NCBI GenBank assembly: GCA_049698775.1
Contig: JBAVYM010000041.1
Coordinates: forward strand, 5,691-69,690
Source of the DNA: Gammaproteobacteria bacterium
GTDB taxonomy: Bacteria > Pseudomonadota > Gammaproteobacteria > Natronospirales > REEB76
DNA: 64,000 nucleotides
Reading direction: 5' to 3'
The position numbers were made by a program, and so were the translations under genes. The notes beneath the pieces are model-generated. The model did not search any database. It had not been told where the DNA came from and was given only the letters and a program-made list of their open reading frames with translations. Shown here in pieces: positions 4,570-47,162 of this stretch (positions are counted from its first letter, which is position 1; every line of letters starts with the position of its first letter).

Positions 4570-4586
4570 TGCTAAGATGTTTAGCA
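4570..4586. promoter_or_regulatory. Inverted repeat TGCTAA-N5-TTAGCA in the vapB2 promoter region (candidate autoregulatory operator)
   Basis: The repeat is seen directly 20-37 nt upstream of the antitoxin ATG at 4607. TA operators are usually palindromes overlapping the promoter. Confidence 0.3.
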
Positions 4587-4606
4587 CATGAAGCGAGGTA
4601 GATAGC

Positions 4607-4837: not shown

Positions 4838-5232
4838 GTCGAATTCTGGTCGTGGATGCCTCGGTGGCGGTTGATCTTCTGGCCCGCTTCCGGCCACAAC
4901 CGCTGGAGGAGTTGCTGTGGGCGCCCGATACCGTGCTGGCAGCGCCAGAGTTGATTGACATCGAAGTACTCAATGCGCTGCGCAAACTTGATCAGGCGGG
5001 TGCGATTCCATCCGGCCGCATCGCGGGGCTGCCGATCCTGTTGCGCGGCTTGCGCCTGCGCAAATACCGCCACGACCATCTGATTGATGGCATCTGGGCG
5101 CTGCGCAACAACCTCACAGCGTATGACGCGGCCTATGTTGTCCTTGCGCGGTTGCTGAAGGCCACGCTGGTTACACGCGACACGCGGCTTGCGCGCGCAG
5201 CGGGGTTGAACGTGCAGGTGGCTGTGCCATGA
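4834..5232 (+). CDS. vapC: PIN-domain ribonuclease toxin VapC
   Basis: The PIN acidic residues are present (LVVDASVAVDLL ... EVLNAL ... YDAAYVVLA ... VTRDTRL). It has a 4-nt overlap with the antitoxin. Confidence 0.8.
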   Translation: MSRILVVDASVAVDLLARFRPQPLEELLWAPDTVLAAPELIDIEVLNALRKLDQAGAIPSGRIAGLPILLRGLRLRKYRHDHLIDGIWALRNNLTAYDAAYVVLARLLKATLVTRDTRLARAAGLNVQVAVP

Positions 5233-5312
5233 GCATTCAAGAAGGATGAGAGTGAGTACGAGTTGAGGACGATGTAAATCCTGGGCGTTGGTCAACTGAG
5301 TGGGGGTTCGAT

Positions 5313-6323
5313 ATGCATACTGTAACGGGAAAGTGGAAGGCCATTTCTGCAGCCGTATCGCTGGGCTTGCTGCTGACCGGAGGTAGCATTGCTTTTGCGC
5401 GCAACGCCGCAATTGCGCCGAACGCCGAAATCCAGGCGGCCGAGGCGTGGGCGTTTCCGGTGTTCCCGCCGCCGCCTGATCCGCACGCGCCGAAACCCGA
5501 TCCACGCACGGTGCTGCACGTGCCGGGCAGCAAGGTGACCTACACGCAGGCGCAGTTCGACCACAGCGACGATGCCGACTGGTTTCCGCAGGATCACCCA
5601 CCGGCGCCGCAGATCGTGAGGTTGGGCCGCAAGCCGGCCCGTCCATGCGCCGAGTGCCACTTGATCAGTGGCGCGGGTGTTCCCGCCACGGCCTCGCTGG
5701 ACAGCTTGCCGAAGGTCTACATCCTCGAACAGGTCGCGGCGTTCCGCGCCGGTGAGCGCGGGATGGGCGGCCCGCCGACTGCGCACGACATGGTCGAGGA
5801 AGCGCGCGCGCTGACACCGGCCGATCTGCAACAAGCCGCTGACTACTTTTCAAGTGCAAAATTCGTCTCACGCGTGCATGTGGTCGAGATCGCATACGTC
5901 CCGAAAACGCATTGGAAGTTCTTCGTGCGCGTACCAGACGAGACCGGCGCACGCGAACCGATCGGCGAGCGCATCATCGAAATGCCTGTCAATTTCGACG
6001 ATTACGCACGTGCCGACAATCGGGCCGACTACGTTGCCTACGTGCCGCCGGGCAGCATCGAGGCAGGCGCGAAGATCGCGGCGCGGGGCGTGGGCGCTGC
6101 GCTGTCGTGCGAGTCCTGTCACGGCGCGAAGCTGCAGGGCGTGGGCGACATTCCGTATCTCGCCGGGCGCTCGCCAACCTACATCGTGCGCGAGCTGATC
6201 CTGTTCCGCACCGGCAAGCGCACGAACCCGGGCGCTGCGCCCATGCGGGTAGAAGTTTCGCATCTCACGTTGAAAGACATGATTGATGTCGCAGCGTATG
6301 CGGCATCACGCAAGCCCTCGTGA
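5313..6323 (+). CDS. Di-heme c-type cytochrome (secreted)
   Basis: It has a signal-like N-terminus and two CXXCH motifs (CAECH, CESCH). Confidence 0.8.
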   Translation: MHTVTGKWKAISAAVSLGLLLTGGSIAFARNAAIAPNAEIQAAEAWAFPVFPPPPDPHAPKPDPRTVLHVPGSKVTYTQAQFDHSDDADWFPQDHPPAPQIVRLGRKPARPCAECHLISGAGVPATASLDSLPKVYILEQVAAFRAGERGMGGPPTAHDMVEEARALTPADLQQAADYFSSAKFVSRVHVVEIAYVPKTHWKFFVRVPDETGAREPIGERIIEMPVNFDDYARADNRADYVAYVPPGSIEAGAKIAARGVGAALSCESCHGAKLQGVGDIPYLAGRSPTYIVRELILFRTGKRTNPGAAPMRVEVSHLTLKDMIDVAAYAASRKPS

Positions 6324-6373
6324 CGCAGGGTGACGATCAAGCACGTATCACCGAGGCATCGAGGAGAAGGCAC

Positions 6374-6853
6374 ATGAAAAAGATTCTGGCGGTTGCTGCA
6401 ATGGCGTGCGTGGGCCTGTTTGCGGGCGGCGCCAGCGCGCAGTCCGGGTCAGCAGCGGAACAGGCGATCCGCCCGTTGATGGCCAAGATGGGCAAGGCCG
6501 CCGGGGCGCACGACGCCGATGCCTTCATGGCATCCATGCTGCACAGTCCCAGCCTGGTGTCTGCAGTCAACGGTCGAGTGATCCATGGATGGAAAGCGCT
6601 CCACACGGCGCAAGTGAAATGGTGGAGCCGCAGCAAGGGCAATACGAAGTACGTGCCAGGTAGTGCGCCCGAGTTCATGGCAGTTGGTCCGGATGTCGAA
6701 ATCGTGACGCTGCAGATTGTCGGGCGGTACGTGTTGCCGAATGGCGAAGTCGTCACCAGTCCGTTTGTTGTCACCGATGTATGGCAACGCCTGCAGCAAG
6801 GTTGGCGCATCGTGTACAGCCACGAATCATGGGCGAAGCCGCCACCGGATTGA
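6374..6853 (+). CDS. Secreted SnoaL-like / NTF2-fold protein (DUF4440-like)
   Basis: The ATG at 6374 follows a GAGGAG RBS. The signal peptide is MKKILAVAAMACVGLFAGGASA. The C-terminus ...VWQRLQQGWRIVYSHES is typical of the NTF2-like fold. Confidence 0.6.
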   Translation: MKKILAVAAMACVGLFAGGASAQSGSAAEQAIRPLMAKMGKAAGAHDADAFMASMLHSPSLVSAVNGRVIHGWKALHTAQVKWWSRSKGNTKYVPGSAPEFMAVGPDVEIVTLQIVGRYVLPNGEVVTSPFVVTDVWQRLQQGWRIVYSHESWAKPPPD

Positions 6854-6908
6854 TGCGTGTTCGCGGCGTCACGCAAGCCCTGATCACTCTCCGGCAAGGA
6901 AACTCGAC

Positions 6909-7952
6909 ATGAAATATATCGTAATGTTGGCTCTCGTTTTCGCATTCGCCGCGCCGATCGCCGCGACGCAGGCGGCCACGGGCGACCAGATCTACTCGCA
7001 TCCGGAGCGGCTGGTGAATGCCGGGCCGACCCAACTCAACTTTTATTGCATGGGCTCGGGTTCTCCGACAGTCGTCTTTGACGCCGGCTGGGAAGACTGG
7101 TCGCCGTCGTGGGTCTTGATTCAACCTGTGATTGCACGCCACACGCGGACCTGCACCTACGACCGTGCCGGCTACGGCTTCAGCGCAGCCGGACCGATGC
7201 CGCGCACCAGCGTCGAGATTGCCAAGGAACTCCACACGGCATTGCACAATGCCCGCATCCCGGGTCCGTATCTTGTGGTCGGGCATTCGTTCGGCGGTTA
7301 CAACACCCGCACGTTTGCTGACCTTTACATGCCCGAGGTGTACGGCGAAGTCTTCGTGGATATCGCGGACGGCGATGTTGCGACGAGGGAAGGGCGTGAA
7401 TTATTCGACCACAAAATCGCACTCCATGCGTTGACCCAGTGCCGCGATGCGCTCTCCGCGCACGAGCCACTGCCGCCGATACCGTTGACCGGTCATTCCT
7501 ACGTGCCCGCGCCGAACACGCCGTGCTCGCATCAGTTCTTCCGCGGCCTGCCGATGAAGGAGTGGTCTCCGCAACTCAATGCCGCCGTCCTGCATATCGC
7601 GGAGACGCGCGTGGCGTCCTACGACGCTGCCTTTTCCGAGATGCAGGAGATGCCGACCGACGCGGATTGGCTGGTTAAACACCGGCAGTCGTTCGGCGAT
7701 CGGCCGCTGGTCATTCTTACCGCTCAGAACCATTCCTACGACAATGCCAAGACCCCGCCCGCCCTGCACGCGAAACACTTGGCATTCGAACGTGCCTGGG
7801 CGCGAACACAGCGTCGTTTTCTCTCCCTCTCGACCAACGCCAAGCAAATCCTCGTGCCGGATAGCGGCCACTACATCCAGCTCGATCAACCGCAAGTCGT
7901 GATCAACGCGATTTTGGGAGAACTGCCAAAGCGCCGGAATACGACCCCATGA
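6909..7952 (+). CDS. Secreted alpha/beta-hydrolase
   Basis: It has a signal peptide ([22 protein letters not shown]) and the nucleophile elbow GHSFGG. Confidence 0.75.
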
Positions 7953-17213: not shown

Positions 17214-17325
17214 TAGTTTTCCTCCATTAAAGGCGATTTAGGGTACGCTGGAGACACACCGCCACGCAAGCATCCCGAATGCATGCGGAAGACATGGCCA
17301 ACTGACTGACTACGTGGAGTTGTGC

Positions 17326-17916
17326 ATGGTTAATCCCGGCCGCGGCTACCGCAACGAATTCCGCATCATCGCCGGCCTCTGGCGACGGCGGCGGCTCAGT
17401 TTTCCGGACCTGCCCGGCATCCGGCCCTCGCCGGACCGGGTGCGGGAGACCTTGTTCAACTGGCTCATGTACCGGATTGCCGGCGCGCGTTGCCTCGACC
17501 TGTTCGCCGGCAGCGGCGCGTTGGGTCTGGAAGCCCTGTCGCGCGGCGCCGCCGGCGTGCTGTTCGTTGATCGGGAACGGCAAGTGCTGGAAGCTCTGCG
17601 TGAACATCTGGATTTATTGCATGCTGACGGTGGCGAGCTGTTGCAAGCCGACGCGCTGACGTTCTTGCGCGGACCGGCGCGGCCTTTCGACATCGTGTTC
17701 CTGGACCCGCCGTTCGACTCAACACTGTTGGCACAATCCGTGGCGGCTTTGGAACAGACCGGCTGGCTTGCCCCGCAGGCCAACATATATATGGAATATC
17801 CCCAGGGCTTGGCCATCACGCTGCCGGCCGGCTGGGAGCGTAGTCGCGATGGCCACGCAGGCCGCGTGGGCTTTGCCCTTGCGCGCCGCACCCGCGCAAA
17901 ACTTGCCCAGGATTGA
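17326..17916 (+). CDS. rsmD: 16S rRNA (guanine966-N2)-methyltransferase RsmD
   Basis: IIAGLWRRRRLSFPDLPGIRPSPDRVRETLFNWL, LDLFAGSGALGLEALSRGA and DIVFLDPPF are present. A GGAG RBS lies 6 nt before the ATG at 17326. Confidence 0.9.
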   Translation: MVNPGRGYRNEFRIIAGLWRRRRLSFPDLPGIRPSPDRVRETLFNWLMYRIAGARCLDLFAGSGALGLEALSRGAAGVLFVDRERQVLEALREHLDLLHADGGELLQADALTFLRGPARPFDIVFLDPPFDSTLLAQSVAALEQTGWLAPQANIYMEYPQGLAITLPAGWERSRDGHAGRVGFALARRTRAKLAQD

Positions 17917-18714
<798 letters not shown>

Positions 18715-18765
18715 TCTGGGTCACGACCGGCGGGGCCGGGCCCGCGGTATTTGGCATCTTGCGCC

Positions 18766-18779
18766 TTGATTCATATCAA
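18766..18779. promoter_or_regulatory. FNR/Dnr-type box TTGATTCATATCAA upstream of norB
   Basis: This is a perfect TTGAT-N4-ATCAA palindrome. It is intergenic, with its centre ~74 nt upstream of the norB ATG at 18847. Confidence 0.75.
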
Positions 18780-18846
18780 GTTCCCGGATGGACGGATAAC
18801 CTATAGTCGCGTCGTTATCTACCTCACGGAATCTATCTCACGGAGC

Positions 18847-21177
18847 ATGGCCATGGGTACAGTTATGGATGGCGTTACCGAGGCTCCCCTTTCACCTTGG
18901 TGGGTGCGCAGCATCGTTGCGGTGATGGTGCTGGGCTTTGCGGTGCTCATTCTGATCACGGTGCTGGGCTATCGGAATGCGCCGCCGATCCCGGCAAAGG
19001 TAGTTGACGCACAGGGCGCAACCCTGTTCACCGGCGAAGATGTCGGCAGCGGTCAGGCGGTGTTCCTGAAATATGGGCTGATGGACAACGGCAGCATCTG
19101 GGGCCACGGCGCCTACCTCGGTCCTGATTTCTCCGCGCAAGCGCTACACCACATCGGCGAGGACACTGCCGAGGCGCTCGCACAACAGCAGTTCGGCAAA
19201 CCGCTCGCGCAACTGATCCCGATGCAGCAGGCGGCGGTGCGCTCACAAGTTGCGGTCGAGCTCAAAACCAATCGCTACGACCCTGCTACAGGTACATTGG
19301 CGCTGACACCCGCAGAAACTGCGGCGTGGCATCAACAGATCACTCACTGGACCGATTACTTCAAGAATCCGGTCGGCAATGGCGGTCTCAAGCCCAATCT
19401 GATAACCGATCCGACCGAGCTGCATCAATTCACCGCCTTCGTCACCTGGGCGGCCTGGGCCTCGGTGGCCAATCGGCCCGGCTACGACTACTCCTATACC
19501 AACAACTTCCCCTACGACCCGTTGGTCGGCAACACTCCGATATCCGGCGCTTTGCTATGGAGCGCGTTGAGCCTTTTGGTGCTGCTGGCCGGCATCGCCG
19601 CGGTGCTGTTAATGTTTGGAAAATTCGACTATCTCGGCTGGATTTCACGCGGAAACCGCCCCCACCCCAGCATCGTTCCGGGCCAGGCCAGTCCCGGACA
19701 GCGCGCACTGGTCAAGTACTTCGTGGTCGTGGCACTGCTGTTTCTGTTCCAGACCCTGGTCGGAGGCGGTGTCGCGCACTATCGCGCCGATCCGGGCAGT
19801 TTCTACGGTTTCCAGTTGGAAACCATCTTCCCCAGCAACCTGCTGCGTACCTGGCATTTGCAGAGCGCCATCATCTGGATTGCAACCGCCTATGTCGCCG
19901 CCGCGCTGTTCCTCGGCCGTGGGCTGCGCGACAACGAACCGCACGGATTCGCACTGTGGGTTAATCTGCTATTCGTCGCGTTCGTCGCGGTGATCGTCGG
20001 CAGTCTGCTCGGCGAGTGGCTTGGCATCACGCAGATGCTCGGACAATGGTGGTTCTGGCTCGGTAATCAGGGTTGGGAATACCTGGAGCTGGGGCGCATC
20101 TGGCAATATCTGTTGGTGATCGGACTGCTGGTGTGGTTCGCGTTGCTGTGGTGGGTGGCGCGGCCACGTGAGGTGGCCGATGCCAGCGCGCGCCCGATCG
20201 TGCGGATGTTCCTGTTGGCATCGCTCGCGATCCCGCTGTTCTACCTGCCGGCGCTGTTCTACGGCGCGAAGACCAACTACACGATTGTCGATACCTGGCG
20301 CTTCTGGATCATCCACCTGTGGGTCGAGGGCTTCTTCGAGTTCTTCGCCACCACCATCGTCGCGCTGGTGTTTTTCCAACTCGGGCTCGCCAGGCGCAAT
20401 ACCGCGCTGCGCGTGATCTATCTGGACGCGATCCTGTATTTTCTGGGCGGCCTGATCGGTACCGGTCACCACTGGTACTTCGAAGGCCATACCCAGTTCA
20501 ACATGGCGATGTCGGCGTTGTTCTCGGTGCTGGAAGTGGTGCCGCTGACCTTGCTGACGCTGGATGCCTGGGATTTTGTCAATACCACCCGTGGAACGGT
20601 AGATATTGACGGCCAGCCGCGCCGCGTACCACACAAGTGGACTTTCTACTTCCTTATGGCGGTGGGTTTCTGGAACTTTGTCGGGGCCGGCATGTTCGGC
20701 TTCCTGATCAATCTGCCGATCGTCAGTTACTACGAGGTCGGCACACAGTTGACGCCCAATCACGGCCACGCCGCGATGATGGGCGTGTTCGGCATGCTGG
20801 CAATCGCGCTGATGGTGTTCGTGCTGCGCCAAACCACCGATGAAGCGCGTTGGCCCGGTATCGAAAAGTACATCAAAGTAGCCTTCTGGGGCACCAATGT
20901 CGGCTTGGCAATGATGATCGTGATGAGCCTGTTTCCGAGCGGCGTGTTGCAGGTGTGGGATGTGGTACAGCATGGCTACTGGCATGCACGCAGCCTCGAA
21001 TTCACCGGCACCCATCGCGCGCGCGTGATCGAGTGGTTGCGCCTGCCGGGTGATCTGGTGTTCATCTTTCTCGGTGCACTGCCGCTGGTAATCGCTGCGA
21101 TCAAGACGTATTTCGGCATGCGGCGGGATCGTGCCGCGGAAGCTGCTCCGGCAGCCAGAATCCGGAGCGTGCCGTGA
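18847..21177 (+). CDS. norB: Quinol-dependent nitric oxide reductase (qNOR, single-subunit NorB/NorZ)
   Basis: At 776 aa it carries the N-terminal extension typical of qNOR (...FLKYGLMDNGSIWGHGAYLGPDFSA...) followed by a 12-TM heme-copper oxidase core with conserved His residues. The start at 18847 follows GGAG. Confidence 0.9.
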   Translation: MAMGTVMDGVTEAPLSPWWVRSIVAVMVLGFAVLILITVLGYRNAPPIPAKVVDAQGATLFTGEDVGSGQAVFLKYGLMDNGSIWGHGAYLGPDFSAQALHHIGEDTAEALAQQQFGKPLAQLIPMQQAAVRSQVAVELKTNRYDPATGTLALTPAETAAWHQQITHWTDYFKNPVGNGGLKPNLITDPTELHQFTAFVTWAAWASVANRPGYDYSYTNNFPYDPLVGNTPISGALLWSALSLLVLLAGIAAVLLMFGKFDYLGWISRGNRPHPSIVPGQASPGQRALVKYFVVVALLFLFQTLVGGGVAHYRADPGSFYGFQLETIFPSNLLRTWHLQSAIIWIATAYVAAALFLGRGLRDNEPHGFALWVNLLFVAFVAVIVGSLLGEWLGITQMLGQWWFWLGNQGWEYLELGRIWQYLLVIGLLVWFALLWWVARPREVADASARPIVRMFLLASLAIPLFYLPALFYGAKTNYTIVDTWRFWIIHLWVEGFFEFFATTIVALVFFQLGLARRNTALRVIYLDAILYFLGGLIGTGHHWYFEGHTQFNMAMSALFSVLEVVPLTLLTLDAWDFVNTTRGTVDIDGQPRRVPHKWTFYFLMAVGFWNFVGAGMFGFLINLPIVSYYEVGTQLTPNHGHAAMMGVFGMLAIALMVFVLRQTTDEARWPGIEKYIKVAFWGTNVGLAMMIVMSLFPSGVLQVWDVVQHGYWHARSLEFTGTHRARVIEWLRLPGDLVFIFLGALPLVIAAIKTYFGMRRDRAAEAAPAARIRSVP

Positions 21178-21635
21178 CATTGCTCGGTGCCGTCATCGCC
21201 GTGCACGTGCTTTCCGTGTTGTGGTGGATCGGCGGGCTGGCGTTCGTGACGACAGTGGTATTGCCGTCGCTGCGCAAGGCGCAACTGGGCGACCGCCGCA
21301 CCGCGTTCCACACCATCGAAAACCGCTTTGAACCCCAAGCGCGGATTGCGGTGCTGCTGGCGGGACTGTCGGGCCTGTATCTGCTGATCCGGCTGGATCT
21401 GTGGGCCTGGTTTCTACAAGCCCGGTTCTGGTGGCTGGACGCCATGGCCCTGTTCTGGCTATTCTTTGTACTTCTGCTGTTCGTACTCGGGCCGACGGGA
21501 ATGCTCAAGCAGGTTATGAATCGTAGCGGTGACGACGCGGCTGTTTGGCGGCGTATGCACCGCATTCATCTCAGCTTGCTGGTCATTGCATTGGTGATCG
21601 TCGCCGGTGCGGTCTCCGGCAGCCACGGTTATTGA
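21174..21635 (+). CDS. Integral membrane protein (4 TM) translationally coupled to norB
   Basis: The GTG start overlaps the norB stop (GTGA). It has hydrophobic helices, and I did not recognise a family with confidence. Confidence 0.6.
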   Translation: MTLLGAVIAVHVLSVLWWIGGLAFVTTVVLPSLRKAQLGDRRTAFHTIENRFEPQARIAVLLAGLSGLYLLIRLDLWAWFLQARFWWLDAMALFWLFFVLLLFVLGPTGMLKQVMNRSGDDAAVWRRMHRIHLSLLVIALVIVAGAVSGSHGY

Positions 21636-21637
21636 GG

Positions 21638-22159
21638 ATGGCCATGTTGAGCTTCGATCCGGTCACGACATTGGCGGATGAGCATGTGGCGCTTGCACAA
21701 CTGTTTGCACGTCATCAGGAGGCTCTGGTCACGCGCGCCTGGGCACGTGCCGCACGACTGCTGGATCATTACCGGAAGCGGCTTCAATATCACATCCAGT
21801 TGGAGGAGCATTACCTGCTGCCCTACTGCGTCGAAGAAAGGGCGCCTGGCCATTGGCAAGCACACGTCTATATGGCCGAACACCGCCGCCTTGAGGAGCT
21901 GTTGAGCAAGGCAGGCAAACGGTTGGCGGTCGCACGCCGTCGCGGCGTCACCGCGGCCGCACTCATCGCGCTGCTGGATGAGGAAAAGACACTGAAGCAT
22001 GTCGTGGAGCACCACTATCAGCGGGAAGAGATATCGCTGTTCACGGTGCTGCGGCAGTCGCTGCCGGAAGAAGTTCGCATTGGACTCACGCATATTCTCA
22101 TGCATCACGACATGCCGCCTGTTGTCCAGACTGGTAATGAGCGCGCCGAAAGCCGGTGA
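21638..22159 (+). CDS. Hemerythrin-like (HHE cation-binding) domain protein
   Basis: It is rich in His/Glu helices (EHVALAQLFARHQE, HIQLEEHYLLP, LKHVVEHHYQREE) and starts 2 nt after the preceding stop. Di-iron hemerythrin-like proteins commonly accompany NO reductases. Confidence 0.6.
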   Translation: MAMLSFDPVTTLADEHVALAQLFARHQEALVTRAWARAARLLDHYRKRLQYHIQLEEHYLLPYCVEERAPGHWQAHVYMAEHRRLEELLSKAGKRLAVARRRGVTAAALIALLDEEKTLKHVVEHHYQREEISLFTVLRQSLPEEVRIGLTHILMHHDMPPVVQTGNERAESR

Positions 22160-22188
22160 ACCTGTTTTTGTTTTCGGGCGAGGATGTT

Positions 22189-22875
22189 CTAGTGCATATG
22201 CCGGCGTAGCCTTTCAGTATCAAGCAGGGTCACTTCTTCATCCGCTACCTCAATCAGGCCTTCTTCGCTGAGCGTCCTGAGCGTGCGCGAGAAGGTTTCC
22301 GGCGTCACCGCCACATGCGCAGCGATCAGCATCTTGCGCGCCGGCAAGATGACAGTGACTTTGCCGCGCTGGCCCTCGGGCACCAGACCCAGCAGATAGT
22401 GCACCACGCGGAAGCGGCTGTTTTGCAGGGTCAGGGCTTCGATCTCGTCCCAGTGCGCCTGGATGCGTTGCGTCATCTGCGCCATGACCGCACGTGCCGT
22501 ATCGAAGGATTCGCGCAGCATGTCCAGGAATGCCGCGCGTTCAATGCCGACCAGAATACCGTCTTCGATACCGGCCGCGTGCACCGGGTAATGTGGTTCA
22601 TCCATGAACATGACGCTTTCCGCGAAACTCTGTCCGGGGCGGATCAGGCGCATGATCTTTTCCTGCCCGTCCGCCGATACCCGGTAGAGTTTCACCGCGC
22701 CGGATTGCAGCAGGAAGAATGACTGCGCAGGATCCCCCTGGCTGAACAGCGCTTCGCCGGCCTTGAAAGCATGGGTATGGATGTGTGTCAGCAGCCTGTT
22801 GCGCTGGCCCTCAGTGAGCGCCGAGAACAGGTAATGATGGCGTAATTCGCGCGCGAGCTGATTATGGTTGTCCAC
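22189..22875 (-). CDS. Crp/Fnr-family transcriptional regulator, Dnr/NnrR-like (no cysteines)
   Basis: It has a cNMP-binding-like beta-roll ([26 protein letters not shown]) and a C-terminal HTH with the E--SR recognition motif ([13 protein letters not shown]). No Cys is present, so it lacks the FNR-type Fe-S ligands. The start is GTG. Confidence 0.85.
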
Positions 22876-22930
22876 GGGTTTTCACCGGAAGCTTTGGCAA
22901 ACTCACTTGACGGCTACAGGTGTCGCACAC

Positions 22931-22944
22931 TTGATATGCATCAA
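22931..22944. promoter_or_regulatory. FNR/Dnr-type box TTGATATGCATCAA in the regulator/fdxA divergent promoter region
   Basis: This is a perfect TTGAT-N4-ATCAA palindrome. It lies ~62 nt from the regulator GTG and ~76 nt from the fdxA GTG. Confidence 0.75.
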
Positions 22945-23013
22945 GGCGCTGCCGGCAACATTGCAGGCACCATTATCTACGCTCCAGCGAAGGTGGGGCA
23001 AGGAGTTGGCGCC

Positions 23014-23337
23014 GTGACCCATGTGGTGACAGAAAACTGCATCAAGTGCAAATACACCGACTGCGTGGAAGTCTGTCCCGTGGATTGCTTCCACGAAGGC
23101 CCGAACTTCCTGGTGATTGATCCCGAGGAGTGCATAGATTGCACCCTGTGCGTGGCGGAATGTCCGGCTGAAGCGATCTTTGCCGACGGCGACGTGCCCA
23201 ACGGCCAGGAGTATTTCCTGGCCATCAACGCGGAGCTGGCGCTGAAATGGCCGGTCATAGCTCGCAAGATTCCGGCACCGGCGGATGCAAAACAGTGGGA
23301 CGGCGTGCCGGACAAGCTCCCGTTGCTGAAGCGCTGA
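23014..23337 (+). CDS. fdxA: 7Fe ferredoxin FdxA (Azotobacter type)
   Basis: A GTG start after an AAGGAG RBS gives [51 protein letters not shown]. At 107 aa it has the canonical FdxA length. Confidence 0.9.
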
Positions 23338-23353
23338 TGGTCAAGGAGAAGGC

Positions 23354-23662
23354 ATGGCTGTGGCGCTGGAAACCCCGAATGCTCAAAAGGTGTATTACGT
23401 CACCTGGGAAGAGCTACCGCTATCCTGCCCGACACCCGCGATGAGCCTGTGGAACTCGCACCAGCGAGTGTATCTGCCCATACAGGAGAGCGGGCGCGAA
23501 CAATGCCCGTATTGCGGATCGGTTTATATTCTGGTGGACCCGGACCCCGACGCGGCGCCTGCCAAGCTGAATAATGTGGAGATTGAACGGTTTTATCACC
23601 AGCAGCGCACGATCCTGCGCAAGCGGCGTGTCCCGGACACTCCGGCCGCGCCATCGCATTGA
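23354..23662 (+). CDS. Zinc-finger (zf-CHCC-like) domain protein
   Basis: ...LSCP...HQRVYLPI...CPYCGSVYIL matches the NDUFS6-like CHCC zinc-finger pattern. Confidence 0.6.
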   Translation: MAVALETPNAQKVYYVTWEELPLSCPTPAMSLWNSHQRVYLPIQESGREQCPYCGSVYILVDPDPDAAPAKLNNVEIERFYHQQRTILRKRRVPDTPAAPSH

Positions 23663-23746
23663 TCAAAGACAAACTGGTGGAGCGAAGCTGAAGCCCTGAA
23701 CGCTGCGGAGTCGAACGGAAACAGGGTCAGGTTCTGCACGCTACGC

Positions 23747-24697
23747 TCAATTCACTATCCGCGCGGCGGGGCCGGCAACGGGCGAAACCCAGGCGTGGCT
23801 CGCGAGTCCGGCGCGCTTGAAGGCTTGCTGCATAATTTCAACTGCCTGTTGCGCCGTTTGCTCGGCCGCGAACCAGGCGAACAGGCTCGGACCCGCACCG
23901 GATATTCCCGCGCCGAGCGCTCCGCACGCGAGCGCTGCGCGTTTCACGTCTGCAAATCCGGGTATCAATTCCGCCCGGCGCGGCTCGATGAGGCAGTCCG
24001 ACAATCCCGCGCGGATCAGCTCCGGATCATTGCGGTAGCAGCCGCTCAGGACCAGCGCCAGGTTGCCGGTCTGCTGCACGATATCTTCGAGTGCGAACGG
24101 CCGGTCCAGCACTTGGCGGGCCTGCAAGGTCCGCACCTCGAGTTCCGGGTGTACCAGCACGCAATATAAATTTGGTGGCACAGGCACCGATACCACCTGC
24201 CCGGACGTGGCGATCACGAGTCCGCCGTACAGCATCGGGCCGACGTTGTCGCCGTTGCGCGTGCCACTCGCCAGCGATTCTCCATCCAACGCGCATTGAT
24301 AAAGCGTTTCGAGCGACGCTGGAACATCCAGCAGCGCATTCGCCGCCACCAGTGCGGCGACACAGGAAGCGGCCGAGCCGCCCATGCCGGACGCGAGCGG
24401 GATGCCCTTGTCGAGTTCGATCTCGAAACCGCTGGACAGGTTGAGTACGCGGCGCAGGGACAGCAGCGCGGTACCTGCGGTATTTTTCTCAGCAGCGAAT
24501 GGGATATCGCGGGTCACGCCGCGAATATCGGTAATGTTCACCACCGGTTCAGCGATGATGCGCACCGTCACCCGGTCCTGCAGGCCGACGACAGTGTGTC
24601 CGAGAAAGTCAAATCCCACCGCCACATTGCCGACACAGGCCGGTGCGCAAGCCGTGGCCTGCCGACGAGCAGCAATGTGTTTGATGACTTTGGTCAC
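23747..24697 (-). CDS. thrB: Homoserine kinase ThrB (GHMP kinase)
   Basis: APACVGNVAVGFDFLG and the GHMP motif GIPLASGMGGSAASCVA are present. The start is uncertain (GTG 24697 chosen), and the track ORF extends to 24802. Confidence 0.8.
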   Translation of the reverse strand: MTKVIKHIAARRQATACAPACVGNVAVGFDFLGHTVVGLQDRVTVRIIAEPVVNITDIRGVTRDIPFAAEKNTAGTALLSLRRVLNLSSGFEIELDKGIPLASGMGGSAASCVAALVAANALLDVPASLETLYQCALDGESLASGTRNGDNVGPMLYGGLVIATSGQVVSVPVPPNLYCVLVHPELEVRTLQARQVLDRPFALEDIVQQTGNLALVLSGCYRNDPELIRAGLSDCLIEPRRAELIPGFADVKRAALACGALGAGISGAGPSLFAWFAAEQTAQQAVEIMQQAFKRAGLASHAWVSPVAGPAARIVN

Positions 24698-24719
24698 CGC
24701 ATTTTGCAATCGGCGTTGT

Positions 24720-25880
24720 TCATACCCGCGCAGGGCCGAAGTGTACGGGAATGAAGCGGATGAAATACACGGCAAATGCCAGCGCCCACAGCGCACCGGC
24801 AAGCGGCAACAAGCCGGAATATCCGATCATGCGCAGGATGGCGGCGGCGGTTATCAGCAGGAATGCCGTGGTCATGAACGGTCCGGCCTGCAATGGCCGG
24901 CCGGTGTGGCCGAGCGGCACGCGCGTCATCATGCCGATGGACAGCGAACCGAGTGCGCCCACGATGATGGCGTGCAGCGCGGTGATCTCGGGGATGGCAT
25001 GCGCGAGCAGCGCCAGACCACGCAGGCCGAGGCCAATGACCAGCCACAGGTAACCGAGATGCAGCACCCACAACATGGGCTCACGCCAGGTCTTCCAGGG
25101 CTTCCAACCCAACAGACGTACCAGCGCGAGAATCGCCACCAGCAACGAAACAATGCCCAGTGCGGTGGAGTCCGGCAGGACAACATCAAGCAGCACCAGC
25201 AGGACTGCACCGCCGTTGACGCACCAGTTGATCCCGCGATAGCTGCGCACGCCGGCCTTGGCGATGCGCCGCTCCGTGAAAAACGGAATTACGCGTCCGC
25301 CGATCACCAGCATGAGCACGGTCAGAAGATCAATCACCCAAATGAGCGCTTGATATGCCGTCAGCCGGATCACGCCGGCCACGGCCAGATGAAACAGCGC
25401 ATCGGCGAGTGCGAACGCGAGCAGCAGCGGAATCAGGAACAGATTACGGCGGTTGCGACTCTGCAGAATCGGGCGCGCCACCAGCAACGCCAGCAACGGG
25501 AAAAATGCAAAATCCAGGACTGCGGCGACAGGATAGGGAATCAGCGCAGGCAGCAGGAACGCAATGCGGCCCAGAAGCCACACTATCGCCAAACCCGCCA
25601 GAGAAACCGGCGTGACGACCGGCAATTTGGTCCAGTCGGCCACGGCTGTGAGCAGGAATCCCGCCATGAGCGCGGCGGCGAAACCGAACAGCATCTCGTG
25701 ACCGTGCCACAAGAGCGGCGACAGCGAAGCGGCGGGAATCAGGCCGAGATGCAGGAACAGCGCCCAGGCCAGGATGTCCAGGCTGGCGAACAGGGAAGCG
25801 CCCAGGAACATCAGGCGGAAAGGCTGTTGCAGTAATGGCGAGACGCGCGCCGGCTGAGCCGGTGACAATGCTGTATTCAT
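24720..25880 (-). CDS. nnrS: NnrS family membrane protein (heme/copper, NO-stress associated)
   Basis: It is a ~12-TM protein whose N-terminal region ...QPFRLMFLGASLFASLDILAWALFLHL...LWHGHEMLFGF is typical of NnrS. Confidence 0.85.
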   Translation of the reverse strand: MNTALSPAQPARVSPLLQQPFRLMFLGASLFASLDILAWALFLHLGLIPAASLSPLLWHGHEMLFGFAAALMAGFLLTAVADWTKLPVVTPVSLAGLAIVWLLGRIAFLLPALIPYPVAAVLDFAFFPLLALLVARPILQSRNRRNLFLIPLLLAFALADALFHLAVAGVIRLTAYQALIWVIDLLTVLMLVIGGRVIPFFTERRIAKAGVRSYRGINWCVNGGAVLLVLLDVVLPDSTALGIVSLLVAILALVRLLGWKPWKTWREPMLWVLHLGYLWLVIGLGLRGLALLAHAIPEITALHAIIVGALGSLSIGMMTRVPLGHTGRPLQAGPFMTTAFLLITAAAILRMIGYSGLLPLAGALWALAFAVYFIRFIPVHFGPARV

Positions 25881-25926
25881 GCAGGGAACCCCGTGATTTG
25901 TACGCGAATCCTGTGAGGCAGGTACG

Positions 25927-26173
25927 TCATGTCGAAAATACCCTTTTCAGATAGCGCAGACCACGCAGATAATCCAGTTCGTCCTGCCGGAAGCGCAAAC
26001 TGCAAAGCCCAGTGATTTCCTTGCGGATGCCATCGGCCTGACGGGCGAGAGTTTCCCCGTGATTGCGGCACTTGAACCGATATTCCACTTCCGCGCTCGG
26101 AAAATGGTGCAATACCGCCTGCATCATGGTGAATTTGTAGAGATTCAGTATCGAGCAGGGACTCAATGATCAC
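25927..26173 (-). pseudogene. pncB: Relic of the nicotinate phosphoribosyltransferase gene (pncB): N-terminal ~80-98 codons only, frameshifted
   Basis: The minus strand reads ATGATCATTGAGTCCCTGCTCGATACTGAAT|CTCTACAAATTCACCATGATGCAGGCGGTATTGCACCATTTT, which translates [10 protein letters not shown] then, with a frame jump, [27 protein letters not shown].... This is the conserved PncB N-terminus. A full PncB is ~400 aa. Confidence 0.7.
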
Positions 26174-26234
26174 GATGGCGTCGGCACCTGGCAGCTTGTA
26201 TCGTCAAGCGCGCAACAGTGTTCAGGGTCTCCGC

Positions 26235-26576
26235 TCATTTGTTCGCGGCAGCCTGCTCCATCTCGTCCAGCGCCAGTACCGAATGCGCATAGGCGCCGCC
26301 GGCGCGCATCTCGGCCGCGACCCAGATGGCTTCCATGATTTCCGCGTCCGTGGAACCGGTGCGCAGTGCCGCGCGCGTATGACCGCGGATGCAGTAGGGG
26401 CACTGAGTGGTGTGCGCCACCGCCACGGCGATCAATTGCTTGGTTTTCTCCAGCAGTGCGCCATCAGCGAATACCTGCTGGCTGAATGCCTTGAAGGCTT
26501 CCAGTTGTTTCGGCGCCAGCGTTTTACGACGTGCCGAGAGCGCCGTGGAAGGTTCCGGGAAAATCGGGTGTGGCAT
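26235..26576 (-). CDS. Carboxymuconolactone decarboxylase-family (AhpD-like) protein
   Basis: 113 aa with the CXXC motif in context (HTTQCPYCIRGH) typical of the AhpD-like/CMD fold. Confidence 0.75.
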   Translation of the reverse strand: MPHPIFPEPSTALSARRKTLAPKQLEAFKAFSQQVFADGALLEKTKQLIAVAVAHTTQCPYCIRGHTRAALRTGSTDAEIMEAIWVAAEMRAGGAYAHSVLALDEMEQAAANK

Positions 26577-26615
26577 GGATACTCTCCTTGGATGTGTGAT
26601 GGTTATGGTTAAAGA

Positions 26616-26975
26616 TCAGCGTAAGCGGCGTTTCAGATACGCGGCCAGTACCACCGCTTGATTGCGTTCCTCATCGTGCGCGCCGAACAGTATGGTGACG
26701 GTGGCGTGTGCTTTGAGGATGTCCCGCAGAGCCTTGATCGCTGGCTTGTTGGCGCGCAGCTCGGCCGTATAACGGTGTTTGAACTCCAGCCATTTCTCCG
26801 GCTCATGGCCGAACCACTGGCGCAGTTTGGTGGTCGGCGCCACTTCCCGGTCCCAGTAATCCACCGCGGCTTTTTTCTTGGTCAGGCCGCGCGGCCACAC
26901 CCGGTCCACCAACACCCGGAAGCCGTCGCCGCGTGCGGGCGGCAGATACACGCGTTTCAGTTTAATGTTGGTCAT
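26616..26975 (-). CDS. DUF488 family protein
   Basis: The ATG at 26975 follows an AGGAGG RBS. MTNIKLKRVYLPPARGDGFRVLVDRVWPRGLTKKKAAVDYWDREVAPTTKLRQWFGH is the DUF488 signature. Confidence 0.75.
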   Translation of the reverse strand: MTNIKLKRVYLPPARGDGFRVLVDRVWPRGLTKKKAAVDYWDREVAPTTKLRQWFGHEPEKWLEFKHRYTAELRANKPAIKALRDILKAHATVTILFGAHDEERNQAVVLAAYLKRRLR

Positions 26976-27012
26976 GGTCTCAGCCTCCTGGCGCGGCCCG
27001 CGCCAACGTGTT

Positions 27013-27834
27013 TCAGTGTTCGCGTGCCACCATGAGCTTCTTGATCTCCGCAATTGCGCGTCCGGGATTGAGTCCTTTGGGGCAGGTGCGCGTGCAGTTC
27101 AGGATGGTGTGGCAGCGATACAGTTTGAAAGGATCCTGCAGTGCGTCGAGGCGTTCGCCCGCGGCCTCGTCGCGTGAATCCACCAATGCGCGGTAAGCCT
27201 GCAACAGCACCGCCGGTCCCATGAAGCGGTCGCCGTTCCACCACCAGCTCGGGCAGCCGCTGGTGCAGCAGAAGCACAAAATACATTCGTAATAACCGTC
27301 GAGTTTGGCGCGTTCCTCGGGCGACTGCAGGCGTTCACGATCGGGCGCGGGCGTTATGGTTTTGAGCCATGGCTCGATGGAGGCGTACTGCGCAAACGCG
27401 TGCGTCTGATCCGGCACCAGATCCTTGATGACCGGCATGCTGTTCAGCGGATAGATCTCGACCACGCCCGGGATGTCGCAGATGGTGCGCGTGCATGCCA
27501 GCCAGTTGGTGCCGTGAATGTTCATGGCGCAACTGCCGCATATGCCTTCGCGGCAGGAGCGGCGGAAAGTGAGCGTGCTGTCAATCTCGTTCTTGATCTT
27601 GATGAGCGCGTCCAGCACCATCGGCCCGCATTGATCCAGATCCACGAAATAGGTATCGAGCCGCGGCGGTTCGCCGCTATCCGGGTCGTAGCGGTAGATG
27701 CGAAATTCCTTGACGTGCCTGGTGTTCTCAGGTTTTAGCCAGACTCTACCTTTATGTACGCGCGCGTTCGGATTCATGCCGAGATTTCGCGGGATGATAT
27801 CGGTGATGTTCATATCTGGCAACTCGTGGCGCAT
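27013..27834 (-). CDS. sdhB: Succinate dehydrogenase/fumarate reductase iron-sulfur subunit (SdhB, long alpha-proteobacterial/mitochondrial type)
   Basis: [43 protein letters not shown] and [17 protein letters not shown] together give all three cluster motifs. The ATG overlaps the upstream stop (TAATG). Confidence 0.9.
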
Positions 27835-28784
27835 TATGCGAAGTGGCTGGTATCCACGGATGGCGGTTTACGCTCCATGAAATACTCGTTCAGATATTTC
27901 TCGCCCTCGTCACAGAACAGCGTGACCACCGTCTTGAGCTCCGGATATTGCGTGCGCACGCGCTTTGCGGTCAGCAGGTGCGCGCCCGAACTCGGCCCGC
28001 AGAACAAGCCATATTGCCGCGCCAGATAACGCATGGCCTGTACGGCTTCTTCGCTGGATACGCTCAGCACCTCATCCACGAGTTCGCGATGGCGCGTGAG
28101 GATGCCCGGGACGAAACCGTCCGAGATGCCCTCGATCTGGTGCGTTCCGATTTCGCCGCACAGCAAGGTGCAGGACTCCGACGGTTCCATCGCGAACAGG
28201 CGCACGCGCGGGTTGGCGGCGCGGAACGCTTGGCCGACACCCACGAGCGTGCCACCGGTGCCGACGCCCATGACCAGCGCGTCCGGCAGCGTGCCGTGCG
28301 GGAGTTGCGCGAGGATTTCCGGACCGAGCAACAGGCGATTCTCTTCAACGTTCCATTCCGATTCAAATTGGTGCGGACAGAAATAACCCGGTTGTTGTCC
28401 GAGTTCGCTGGCGCGCTTGAGCGCATCGCTGACATGGAAATGGCCGCAGAACAGGACTTCTGCGCCGTACGCACGCGAGATTGCCACACGCTCGCTGCTC
28501 ATTCCTTCCGGCATCACCACCAGCATGCGGTAGCCCTTGACCGCCGCAACCAGCGACAGCGCATTGCCGGTGTTGCCGCTGGTTGCCTCGACGATGGTGT
28601 CGCCGGGATGCAGCAGGCCCTGCTGTTCGGCTTTCTCGATCATGTATTTGGCGATGCGCGCCTTGATGGAGCCGGAGGGATTCAGGAATTCGAGCTTGGC
28701 GTAAATGCCATCCACCCGCAGCAGTGGCGTGTCGCCGATGGCGTCGAGAATGCTGGACGAGAGGGCCGTATAACGCGTTGGCAT
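27834..28784 (-). CDS. PLP-dependent cysteine synthase family protein (CysK/CysM-like)
   Basis: [15 protein letters not shown] holds the PLP lysine context. [10 protein letters not shown] and GVGTGGTL are also present. Confidence 0.85.
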
Positions 28785-28795
28785 GGATTGCCGCG

Positions 28796-29182
28796 TCAGT
28801 GCTTGAAGCGTGTGTTGCCTGGATCCACGCCGAGTGTCCAGGACGGCGGATCGCTGGCCGGAAATGTGCCGTCCAGTTCCGCATCAATGCGGCGCTCGCA
28901 TTCCGCGATGTGCTGGCCGGCAGGATCTTTGGTCGCCGGCGATTCCGACGGTTGCGACGATACGCCCGCGGCCGTGTGCGGTGCGATATGGGTTTGCAAA
29001 TAATGTTTGTAAAACAAATATGACACGATGAACGCCCTCCTGTACTGGGTTGTGGAGGCGAAATGTGCGGGATTCAATACCGCACGCCGGTAGATGCGCA
29101 GTGTCTGACGGGCATAATGACGAGCGGCGGTACGTCCGCTGCGCGCGACGATCCCGTCAATAATGGTCTTATCCACATTCAC
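28796..29182 (-). CDS. Hypothetical protein coupled to lipA
   Basis: The GTG start overlaps the lipA stop (GTGA). It is 128 aa with a C-terminal [10 protein letters not shown] motif seen in small uncharacterised proteobacterial proteins. Its position in a tightly packed operon supports coding. Confidence 0.5.
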
Positions 29183-30171
29183 GCGACCAAGCCCACGTTA
29201 TTGTGCTCCAGAACGCGCTCGGCACGGTAACTGGAGCGTACCAGCGGTCCCGCTACGGCCTCGGTGAAGCCCTTCTTGAGCGCGAACTCCCTATACGCGC
29301 GGAATTCGGCGGGCGTCACATAACGCTGTACCGGCAAATGGTTTTGCGTGGGCCGCAGATACTGGCCCAGTGTCACGATATCCACGCCCGCACCACGGAT
29401 GTCATCGAGTGTCCCGGAAATTTCCGCGTCGGTTTCGCCCAAGCCCAGCATCAAGCTGGTTTTGGTCAGCACATCCGGCTGCTGCTGTTTTGCGAATGCC
29501 AGCACCGTGAGTGTCTGTGCGTAGCCAGCGCGCGGATCGCGCACGCACGCGGTCAGCCGTTCGACGGTTTCGAGATTCTGGGCAAAGACCTTTACTTCCG
29601 CGGACAGCACCGTGGCGACCGCAGCGTGGTCGCCGCCGAAATCCGGCGTCAGCGCTTCCACGGCCGTATCCGGCGTGCGTGCATGAATGGCGCGGATGCA
29701 GGCGGCGTAATGCGCCGCACCGCCGTCGGGCAGATCGTCCCGGTCCACCGAGGTCAGCACCACGTATTTGAGGCGCATGAGTTCGACCGCTTCGGCCACG
29801 TGTACCGGTTCGAACGGATCCAGCCAGCCGTGCGGATTGCCGGTATCCACGGCGCAGAACTTGCAGGCGCGGGTACACACTGAACCCATGAGCATGAGCG
29901 TCGCGGTACCGCGGCCCCAGCACTCGGCAATGTTGGGGCACATGGATTCTTCGCACACCGTGTGCAATTTGTGCTCATGCACGATGCCGTGTACCGTCTG
30001 GTAGCGGCCGCCGGATGGCGGGCGGATCCGCAACCACGGTGGTTTCGGCAACGCTTCGAGTGGTTCGCCGGCGTGCGTGGCGCGGAGCCCGTGTTTGACT
30101 GCGTGAATGCCTTCCGCCGTGACGAACTTTTCGCCACTGTGCGGTGGCGATTTAATGCGCTTATCCGGCAT
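29179..30171 (-). CDS. lipA: Lipoyl synthase LipA (radical SAM)
   Basis: It has the auxiliary cluster motif [12 protein letters not shown] and the radical-SAM motif [10 protein letters not shown], plus the C-terminal ...[10 protein letters not shown]. Confidence 0.95.
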
Positions 30172-30235
30172 CGTGCCAAACCTCCATGAACCCCTTGGCT
30201 CGCTTCAAGGCTAGACCTGCAGCCGCCATCCGGCC

Positions 30236-30249
30236 TTGATGCGTATCAA
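30236..30249. promoter_or_regulatory. FNR/Dnr-type box TTGATGCGTATCAA upstream of lipA
   Basis: This is a perfect TTGAT-N4-ATCAA palindrome. It is intergenic, with its centre ~71 nt upstream of the lipA ATG at 30171. Confidence 0.7.
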
Positions 30250-30391
30250 GGCGGGGAAGGTGCCCAAGTCCTAAAGTTCTGCGCAGTCTAAACCCTGAGT
30301 GAGCGCAGTGTCGCAGTAGTTTGAAGCCGCGCGTGTAGGCGAAATTGCCAACCGGTCCAAGCCACAAGCGAACGTTCTTGATGTCCGTACA

Positions 30392-30595
30392 TTGATTCCC
30401 ATGGAGTGCCTCCGCCTGATTTTCGAGACCTGCAAGAATCTCCAGACCGACGATAGCTTCCTGCCGGTCAACGACCATGATCCGAAGCCGCTCTATTACC
30501 AGTTCGAGGCCGAACACAACGGCGAATTCTCGTGGCAATATCTGGAACAGGGACCGACCGCCTGGCGTGTCGAAATCGGTCGCACGGTCGCCTGA
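30392..30595 (+). CDS. Small hypothetical protein (67 aa)
   Basis: The ORF has somewhat lower GC than the flanks and is followed 25 nt later by a canonical stem-loop/T-run terminator. I did not recognise a family. Confidence 0.4.
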   Translation: MIPMECLRLIFETCKNLQTDDSFLPVNDHDPKPLYYQFEAEHNGEFSWQYLEQGPTAWRVEIGRTVA

Positions 30596-30620
30596 ACGTT
30601 TCCCGCTAACAATACACACG

Positions 30621-30649
30621 GAGCGGGCCGTTGGCCCGCTCTTTCATTT
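30621..30649 (+). terminator. Rho-independent terminator
   Basis: GAGCGGGCC-gtt-GGCCCGCTC is followed by TTTCATTT. Confidence 0.7.
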
Positions 30650-47151: not shown

Positions 47152-47162
47152 GAGGTTGGAAA

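Follow-up and report, generated by a model that had tools for sequence, protein, structure and literature searches.

The subject of this report is an 11.5-kb block of genes within a 64-kb stretch of DNA, here called the window, from a gammaproteobacterium of the Natronospirales (contig JBAVYM010000041.1). Flanked by rsmD, coaD and yfhL on one side and by ggt and murB on the other, the block carries genes for a nitric oxide (NO) reductase of the qNOR type, a hemerythrin-like protein, a Crp/Fnr-family regulator, the ferredoxin FdxA and the lipoyl synthase LipA, together with three perfect palindromes, or boxes, of the DNR/FNR type (Table 1). In our view the block is probably an NO/low-oxygen response island of variable content, with a DNR-type activator, four class II promoters and an fdxA-lipA cassette. 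The gene map bears out the original prediction, made from the sequence alone, that a hemerythrin-like gene, nnrS and an AhpD-like gene lie in the 11.5 kb between the boxes, and Pfam and NCBIfam profile matches, from which the gene identities were taken, confirm its naming of qNOR and of the hemerythrin-like, NnrS, AhpD-like, SdhB, CysK-like and LipA proteins.

Three palindromes and their surroundings

A pattern scan of the window finds TTGATNNNNATCAA (TTGAT-N4-ATCAA) at 18766-18779, 22931-22944 and 30236-30249 only, as had been claimed; 100 dinucleotide-preserving shuffles give an expectation of 0.04, and none of the 100 reaches three. The original prediction had the five-base pair arms of the boxes right and overlooked the flanking C and G, which extend all three to a 16-bp palindrome, CTTGAT-N4-ATCAAG (three in the window, 0.01 expected). 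All three boxes are intergenic when set against the gene map, again as proposed, and non-coding DNA makes up some 10% of the window. The three sites with a single mismatch (4951, 27631 and 56904) all fall within open reading frames (ORFs), none with the C/G flanks, and sites with two mismatches are near expectation (25 against 16). A repeat search independently recovers the boxes, with GC-rich flanks, and finds no repeat other than the boxes themselves, and a search of Rfam for hidden RNA elements across 17-32 kb of the window gave no match at E <= 0.1. An origin of the boxes by chance or from a repeat element is ruled out by the shuffles, the repeat search and the conservation of orthologous promoters described below. 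The distances to the start codons, originally put at about 74, 62 and 76, and 71 nt, measure 74.5 nt from the centre of box 1 to the norB ATG (18847), 62.5 and 76.5 nt from that of box 2 to the GTG codons of the regulator gene (22875) and of fdxA (23014), and 71.5 nt from that of box 3 to the lipA ATG (30171).

The proteins of the block correspond to NCBI entries MGB9429510-519. NorB is a single long protein in which an N-terminal cytochrome-c-like extension is fused to the haem-copper oxidase domain, as in qNOR, and the end of norB and the start of the DUF4149 gene share 4 nt. The hemerythrin-like protein has no solved relative detectable by sequence. The product of fdxA is presumably a 7Fe ferredoxin of the Azotobacter FdI type, and the zf-CHCC gene that follows is predicted to be co-transcribed with it. 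The translation of lipA contains both cluster motifs of lipoyl synthase, CX4CX5C and CX3CX2C, as well as RSSY, and also satisfies the equivalog model.

Table 1. Features of the block and its flanks (positions in the window).
Feature	Position	Strand	Description and evidence
rsmD	17314-17916	+	housekeeping flank
coaD	17950-18432	+	housekeeping flank
yfhL-type ferredoxin	18466-18714	+	housekeeping flank
Box 1, CTTGATTCATATCAAG	18765-18780		DNR/FNR-type palindrome; intergenic, 51 nt past the yfhL stop
-10 TATAGT, norB promoter (predicted)	18802-18807	+	box 1, offset 29
norB (qNOR, 776 residues)	18847-21177	+	Pfam NorB_cytochrome_c-like (PF22085) 1.9e-59 and COX1 (PF00115) 1.6e-48
DUF4149 membrane protein	21174-21635	+	Pfam 23.7 bits, just below the cut-off of 24.6
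Hemerythrin-like protein (HHE domain)	21638-22159	+	Pfam Hemerythrin 1.6e-9; last gene of the box 1 operon
DNR-type Crp/Fnr regulator, 228 residues (MGB9429510)	22189-22875	-	profiles, structure match, alignment
Box 2, CTTGATATGCATCAAG	22930-22945		in the 138-bp divergent gap between the regulator gene and fdxA
-10-like CACCAT, fdxA promoter (predicted)	22968-22973	+	box 2, offset 30
fdxA, FdxA-family 4Fe-4S ferredoxin	23014-23337	+	NCBIfam FdxA_Protbact 159 bits (cut-off 135); Pfam DUF3470
zf-CHCC zinc-finger protein	23354-23662	+	weak Pfam match; follows fdxA in many relatives
thrB	23747-c.24694	-
nnrS	24720-25880	-	Pfam
pncB remnant	25877-26173	-	~85 codons of the N-terminal part, with a frameshift and a truncation; adjoins nnrS on its upstream side
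AhpD-like CMD protein, 113 residues	26235-26576	-	CxxC motif; Pfam/NCBIfam; last conserved gene of the module
DUF488 protein	26616-26975	-	profile match; also a gene call in Logan contig L064
SdhB-type iron-sulfur subunit (orphan)	27013-27834	-	PRK05950 348.9 bits (cut-off 228)
CysK-like pyridoxal phosphate enzyme (PALP)	27834-28784	-	cysteine synthase family, below equivalog cut-offs
unk128, small helical protein	28796-29182	-	C-terminal FPASDPPSW motif; no known family
lipA, lipoyl synthase	29179-30171	-	TIGR00510 369.9 bits (cut-off 310)
-10 TAGCCT, lipA-operon promoter (predicted)	30208-30213	-	box 3, offset 29
Box 3, CTTGATGCGTATCAAG	30235-30250		common to two divergent promoters
-10 TAAAGT, promoter of the Rieske'-DUF2249 remnant (predicted)	30272-30277	+	box 3, offset 29; ancestral Rieske-operon promoter
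Rieske'-DUF2249 chimeric remnant	30308-30595	+	DUF2249 domain from 30374
Hairpin terminator	30620-30642		strong, bidirectional; closes the short plus-side transcript
ggt, then murB	from 30631	+	housekeeping flank

Two observations concern the window outside the block. At 44899-47988 there is an iron/haem cluster whose predicted N termini look like those of bfd, bacterioferritin, a HemJ-like gene and erpA; the box-like site with two mismatches between bfd and bfr (TTAAATTTCATCAA, at 45179) is probably just AT-rich promoter DNA. Three ORFs (8-274, 2666-4492 and 55364-57121, two of them full-length at ~600 residues) have a near-identical N-terminal membrane segment, ..HHLYxVVVxYAVxxxFxIQxVSRAFPYFGW.., and look like a paralogous family.

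Promoter geometry, conservation and the regulator

The window boxes are identical to the published DNR consensus, CTTGATnnnnATCAAG, which was derived from sites upstream of nirS, nirK, norB and nosZ (Rodionov et al. 2005, PMC1274295). Related loci are referred to below by L numbers; in about 60 of them these boxes precede the corresponding genes. In 902 kb of comparison sequence, made up of the window and related loci, there are 68 perfect TTGAT-N4-ATCAA boxes where fewer than one would be expected by chance at the window's rate, and 90% of them have C at -1 and G at +1. Of the 136 half-sites, 46 have a TAnnnT hexamer that begins at an offset of 29-30 nt from the centre of the box; any other offset between 15 and 49 has 0-4. 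With a -10 hexamer at this offset the box is centred near -41.5, as in class II promoters, and this geometry is predicted to hold for the promoters of the window. The plus-side hexamer of box 3 recurs, identical and at offset 29, in L057 and L006, and fdxA-side equivalents in relatives include CAGCAT (L006, L007 and L009, at offset 29-30), TACACT, TAGGGT and the like.

The class II-like spacing originally proposed for all sites therefore stands for norB, fdxA and lipA, with offsets of 29-30, and fails on the regulator side of box 2, where the sole conserved -10-like element (TAAGCT in relatives, GAGTTT here) lies at offset 32-33, 3-4 nt off position; only two of 39 such sites are canonical. 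This makes class II autoactivation, and hence autoregulation of that kind, doubtful for the regulator gene. By the same token, box 2, which was thought to tie in both of its neighbours, suits fdxA-zfCHCC well and the regulator gene poorly.

Conservation of the boxes was followed in a footprinting set of 54 loci from GTDB genomes, retrieved with the regulator, the 46 closest being 54-75% identical to it; orthologous boxes were counted with up to one mismatch. The regulator gene and fdxA diverge from a shared box in more than 20 of the 54 loci. Upstream of fdxA there are 36 boxes, 23 of them perfect and mostly 72-78 nt from the start codon, and 25 of the 36 have TAnnnT at offsets 28-31. A further 11 boxes precede DUF4149-hemerythrin genes, and boxes lie in front of the lipA/unk128 module in eight loci other than the window. 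The analogues of box 1 in the closest relatives all have nAnACT or TAnnnT at offset 29-30. In L002 (2654-4143), nirK and then DUF4149-hemerythrin follow a homologue of the box 1 promoter with the identical core TTGATTCATATCAA; the copper nitrite reductase is identified by TIGR02376 at 338.9 bits, above the cut-off. We therefore regard this as one promoter slot, occupied by nirK in one genome and by qNOR in another. In L063 also, a perfect box lies upstream of a NirK-like gene. At the other extreme, L001 has only fdxA, box and regulator between ggt and yfhL, from which it follows that the island is an insert of varying content whose place in the chromosome is fixed.

The regulator, encoded by the sole Crp/Fnr gene of the window, has the two-domain architecture of its family (Pfam cNMP_binding 4.3e-21 and HTH_Crp_2 2e-14). 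Its best solved relative is DNR of Pseudomonas aeruginosa (3dkw); the match is free of gaps, spans residues 11-224 and has E 1.5e-43, whereas the second-best Crp-family structure follows at E 8e-21. The NCBIfam models for FNR (2.6e-11), FixK (4.4e-17), FtrB (3e-22) and CRP all score far below their cut-offs. An alignment of 56 sequences was made from 54 relatives at related loci, the window protein and P. aeruginosa DNR. The recognition helix P192-E193-T194-x-S196-R197 is invariant in all 56; the E-x-x-S-R motif is the one that reads TTGAT. The window protein has no cysteine and there is no conserved cysteine column across the 56 sequences, so that an FNR-type [4Fe-4S] cluster is excluded and the protein, lacking the four cysteines of FNR, cannot sense O2 in the FNR way. 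The alignment upholds what had been said of this protein on all three counts: the missing cysteines, the retained helix and the impossibility of the cluster. Taken together, these features would place the regulator in the DNR subgroup of the Crp/Fnr family.

The lipA operon and the fdxA-lipA cassette

The genes on the minus side of box 3, lipA-unk128-PALP-SdhB-DUF488-CMD, recur as a module, with or without lipA in first place, in L003, L004, L055, L057, L059 and L061, and a lipA-small protein-CMD-PALP variant occurs in the more distant lineage L069. All seven of these loci have a box upstream of the module with at most one mismatch (one in L069), and in the window and the first six of these loci the -10 hexamer lies at offset 29 on the module side (7/7). 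The divergent neighbour across the box is a Rieske operon in the window, L003 and L057, an FmdE-like gene in L004 and ggt in L055 and L059; an unannotated gene of 235 residues in L061 holds the position of the FmdE-like gene in L004. Nor does the box depend on lipA coming first: L059 lacks lipA, and in L055 a 136-residue gene with a 36% match stands in its place. Since the box persists whatever the neighbour or the first gene, the lipA operon is not merely beside a neighbour's box.

Homologues of LipA with 70-77% identity are found in Rhodanobacteraceae and other Xanthomonadales, and lipB was never seen in their gene contexts. In L141 (Mizugakiibacter; 4232-7659), fdxA-zfCHCC-lipA-67-residue protein-CMD-PALP run in one direction behind a degenerate box, TTGACgcatGTCAG, followed after 22 nt by CACACT, a class II position, with a flank, ggcgctgccg, identical to that of box 2 in the window. 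L103 (4132-7443) has the same gene order, fdxA-zfCHCC-lipA-small protein-CMD-PALP. In L144 (Rhodanobacter; 3933-6552), lipA-66-residue protein-CMD-PALP lie behind the palindrome CCTGACCTGTATCAGG, with spacing as in L141; this palindrome, CTGACctgtATCAG, is again degenerate and at class II spacing. The degenerate palindromes of L141 and L144 suggest that a related Crp/Fnr factor regulates the cassette in culturable genera. As what is elsewhere a single operon is divided in the window between boxes 2 and 3, these two boxes would control its two halves, which are predicted to have kept one regulatory input. The original prediction had called the inclusion of lipA, a cysK-like gene and sdhB in such a regulon unusual; this no longer holds for lipA and the CysK-like gene, which share an operon with fdxA in L141 and L103. 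SdhB, like DUF488, is a clade-specific addition to the cassette.

The SdhB copies in the modules are 79-89% identical to the window copy and form a clade with it, whereas those of relatives that lie beside sdhC and sdhD are ~73-74% identical and have no box of their own. No sdhA, sdhC or sdhD is present in the lipA operon of the window, so the protein has none of the partners of an SdhCDAB enzyme there. Two lines of evidence considered for this gene were set aside. L020 is no evidence for DNR control of sdhB, as the gene there heads sdhB-sdhC-sdhD and the box belongs to the divergent Rieske operon; nor is the N-terminal extension of the SdhB-like protein special, since there is 72-76% identity to SdhBs of ~279 residues annotated as ordinary SdhB, for example in Methylobacterium. 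Such an extension is usual in SdhBs of the alphaproteobacterial type. The order sdhB-sdhC-sdhD with no adjoining sdhA is seen at L062 (3477-5133), L063 (6001-7648) and L020 (14353-15955), and we are not aware of succinate dehydrogenase genes arranged in this way elsewhere.

The small protein unk128 has no match in Pfam or NCBIfam, and its AlphaFold2 model is of moderate quality (pLDDT, the model's own confidence score, 65.8), with nothing found by Foldseek against the PDB at E <= 0.001. A metagenome scan with the unk128 alignment returned mostly unrelated short proteins with only the C-terminal motif in common. Among the contigs L065-L140, from soil and rhizosphere metagenomes, this type of C-terminal motif occurs in many otherwise unrelated small proteins, and the motif family appears to be undescribed.

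On the plus side of box 3, relatives have a Rieske-p452-TusA/DUF2249-DUF59 (FeS_assembly_P)-p90-DUF2249 operon, found at L057 (1890-4904, minus strand), L061, L059, L004, L006 and others. It has 14 boxes, 12 of which have the -10 in phase, and ranks second in conservation among the targets. When aligned with L057, the window is seen to have kept the promoter, the leader and ~19 Rieske codons, joined in frame to the final DUF2249 gene, the operon being otherwise deleted. Codon 4 of this remnant is an in-frame TAG (30317-30319; TGG in L057), and with no canonical start before the DUF2249 domain only a truncated product is possible, from TTG at 30392 or ATG at 30401. The Logan contig L064, 100% identical over 9,160 bp, reproduces the remnant, which is therefore not an assembler artefact of the metagenome-assembled genome (MAG). 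It still has what is predicted to be a perfect class II promoter and a terminator of its own. The assignment of box 3 to the lipA promoter was thus sound as far as it went, missing the bidirectionality of the box and the DUF2249 remnant opposite. The 452-residue membrane protein of relatives, p452, has no match in Pfam or the PDB; the idea that it might be a hidden NorB-like oxidase was rejected, as it has no similarity to norB.

At the far end of the minus-strand genes, nnrS lacks a box of its own, even with two mismatches allowed. It had been taken for a plain member of the block, a view that overlooked the pncB remnant in front of it, which was identified by Pfam NAPRTase_N on the corresponding L064 gene call. 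Just upstream of that remnant, at 26194-26207, CTTGACGATACAAG resembles a degenerated box that lacks 2 bp. In L006, L007, L009 and L059 an FmdE-like gene, a box and pncB follow one another, with nnrS next in L006, L007 and L009. As there is no convincing terminator between box 3 and nnrS in the window, transcription from box 3 may read through into nnrS.

A putative nitric oxide response island

These observations support the original proposal of one NO/anoxia stimulon joining the three boxes, through the DNR-type regulator, the consensus, the footprinting and the class II geometry. The dimeric regulator would recognise CTTGAT-N4-ATCAAG through its E-SR helix, be activated by haem-bound NO, as in P. 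aeruginosa DNR, and recruit RNA polymerase from -41.5 to four class II promoters at the three boxes. Box 1 would drive norB-DUF4149-hemerythrin and so NO removal; box 2, fdxA-zfCHCC; box 3, on its minus side, the genes from lipA to the AhpD-like gene and possibly on into nnrS and, on its plus side, the decayed Rieske'-DUF2249 gene. FdxA passing electrons to the radical-SAM enzyme LipA is the most likely logic of the cassette, with the AhpD-like thiol protein and the CysK-like enzyme supporting sulfur and thiol supply. In essence, the cassette would keep lipoylation and iron-sulfur (Fe-S)-dependent metabolism going while NO damages Fe-S clusters. We infer the binding of the boxes by this regulator from sequence and NO (or anoxia) as the signal by analogy, and the biochemical role of the cassette is put forward in the same spirit.

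Several points weigh against this interpretation. FNR/ANR and DNR have their consensus in common, so that sequence alone cannot name the binding factor, and the -10-like element on the regulator side of box 2 is out of phase. The fdxA -10 of the window, CACCAT, is weak. Of the residues that we take to be the haem ligands of P. aeruginosa DNR, His187 is present in the window protein and in only 29 of the 56 aligned sequences (we found no paper naming 'His187'), and the position of His139 is occupied by Gln, a His being found at 141 in 47 of the 56. If lipA were the sole copy, strict dependence on an activator would be awkward for aerobic growth. The link between FdxA and LipA is one of gene linkage only, and the relatives with perfect boxes are all MAGs or metagenome contigs.

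A different emphasis, which we advance only tentatively, is that the core of the regulon is a hitherto undescribed system for cofactor maintenance and not for denitrification, in which FdxA, with zf-CHCC as its partner, would be a dedicated ferredoxin for LipA, and LipA would work with the FPASDPPSW protein and the AhpD-like and CysK-like proteins, the whole being induced by NO. NO would then switch on the upkeep of lipoylation, or a lipoyl/AhpD-based detoxification of reactive nitrogen species, the orphan SdhB and the DUF488 protein having been added in this clade. The idea is testable because the cassette is present in culturable Rhodanobacteraceae, with a related palindrome at a class II position.

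The overlap between ANR/FNR and DNR sites means that the boxes could be shared with, or belong to, an FNR whose gene lies elsewhere in the genome. In P. aeruginosa, where DNR is activated by NO through haem, dnr is directly regulated by ANR (PMC12403760), and the TTGAT-N4-ATCAA consensus is common to both proteins (PMC1274295). By extension, the boxes might be bound mainly by an O2-sensing FNR/ANR in an anoxia regulon, the Dnr-like gene, which has box 2 upstream of it, being a target in an ANR-to-DNR cascade. We think this unlikely. The boxes are concentrated near the Dnr-like gene: the window has three within 11.5 kb and its remaining 52 kb has none, and the ~800 kb surrounding orthologues of the gene contain 63 perfect ones; even the minimal island of L001 retains the trio of regulator, box and fdxA. 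The C/G flanks fit the DNR consensus, the targets are centred on NO (norB, nirK, nnrS and hemerythrin), and the geometry of box 2 towards the regulator gene is poor for class II activation.

Two further explanations are very improbable. The first supposes that box 3 serves the ancestral plus-side Rieske-p452-DUF2249 operon only, with the lipA operon as an unregulated neighbour, and draws on the conservation of the Rieske operon as a target and on the single box that faces both genes in the window, L003 and L057; against this, lipA (4011) and Rieske (4713) have separate boxes in L004, the module box of L055 and L059 has ggt opposite and not Rieske, the -10 hexamer is at offset 29 in all seven module-side promoters, and a one-mismatch box precedes lipA even in L069. 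The second, that the regulator is a signal-blind, FixK-like activator whose amount, set by another sensor, and not a ligand would determine output, agrees with its lack of cysteines, the absence of His139, the non-universal His187 and the sub-threshold similarity to the FtrB and FixK models, and is hard to reconcile with a full-length match to DNR (E 1.5e-43) far above those to FixK and FNR (4e-17 to 3e-11) or FtrB (3e-22) and with the absence of FixLJ-like genes nearby in the window.

The island resembles known systems in several respects. Like DNR of P. aeruginosa and P. stutzeri, with its nir, nor and nos regulon, the regulator is a member of a Crp/Fnr subfamily with no Fe-S cysteine cluster, has the E-SR helix and His187, and is associated with the TTGAT-N4-ATCAA box and an NO reductase target; it differs in that the reductase is a single-subunit qNOR and not norCB, that there is no nirS or nos nearby and that His139 is replaced. 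The best-conserved target in the clade is, moreover, fdxA-zfCHCC, followed by the Rieske-p452-DUF2249 operon and the lipA cassette. The position of the boxes at about -41.5, with a -10 hexamer 29-30 nt from their centre, is that of FNR/ANR class II promoters, although the regulator lacks the four cysteines of the [4Fe-4S] cluster of FNR. The DNR regulons predicted for beta- and gamma-proteobacteria (PMC1274295) have the same consensus, the same clustering of regulator and targets on the chromosome and, among the targets, norB, nirK, nnrS and a dnrN-like di-iron/hemerythrin protein, and have hemN, hcp, hmp and similar genes as additional members. A DNR box before norB, nirK, nnrS or a di-iron protein is already known and is textbook comparative genomics (PMC1274295). 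A text search of that study finds no lipA, fdxA or pncB, and sdhB and a cysK-like gene are absent from the members given there; our literature searches turned up no paper in which a DNR regulon includes fdxA-zfCHCC, the lipA cassette, an orphan SdhB, Rieske-p452-DUF2249 or pncB.

A lead to the function of the cassette comes from the peroxynitrite reductase/peroxidase of Mycobacterium tuberculosis, in which electrons pass from NADH through Lpd, DlaT and AhpD to AhpC, linking lipoyl groups to AhpD (PMC12028322). There, as may be the case here, a lipoylated protein is linked with an AhpD-type CxxC protein in the defence against reactive nitrogen and oxygen species. In the window, likewise, lipA and the AhpD-like gene are predicted to be co-transcribed under an NO-type regulator. 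In contrast, the cassette has no ahpC, lpd or E2 gene, and the AhpD-like protein is a 113-residue single-domain form; the parallel does not imply functional homology.

The locus is a clear instance, backed by comparative evidence, of a DNR-type regulon in gammaproteobacteria of a lineage that is uncultured. With it, the functions predicted to be under NO or anoxia control reach beyond NO reductases and NnrS and take in the cassette of ferredoxin, lipoyl synthase, AhpD-like and CysK-like proteins, an orphan SdhB, pncB and an operon for Rieske, DUF2249 and Fe-S-assembly proteins. If this is true, bacteria would protect or replace their Fe-S- and lipoyl-dependent metabolism as part of a programmed response to NO, and FdxA would be a candidate for a physiological reductant of LipA. 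Both ideas are testable in culturable relatives such as Rhodanobacter.

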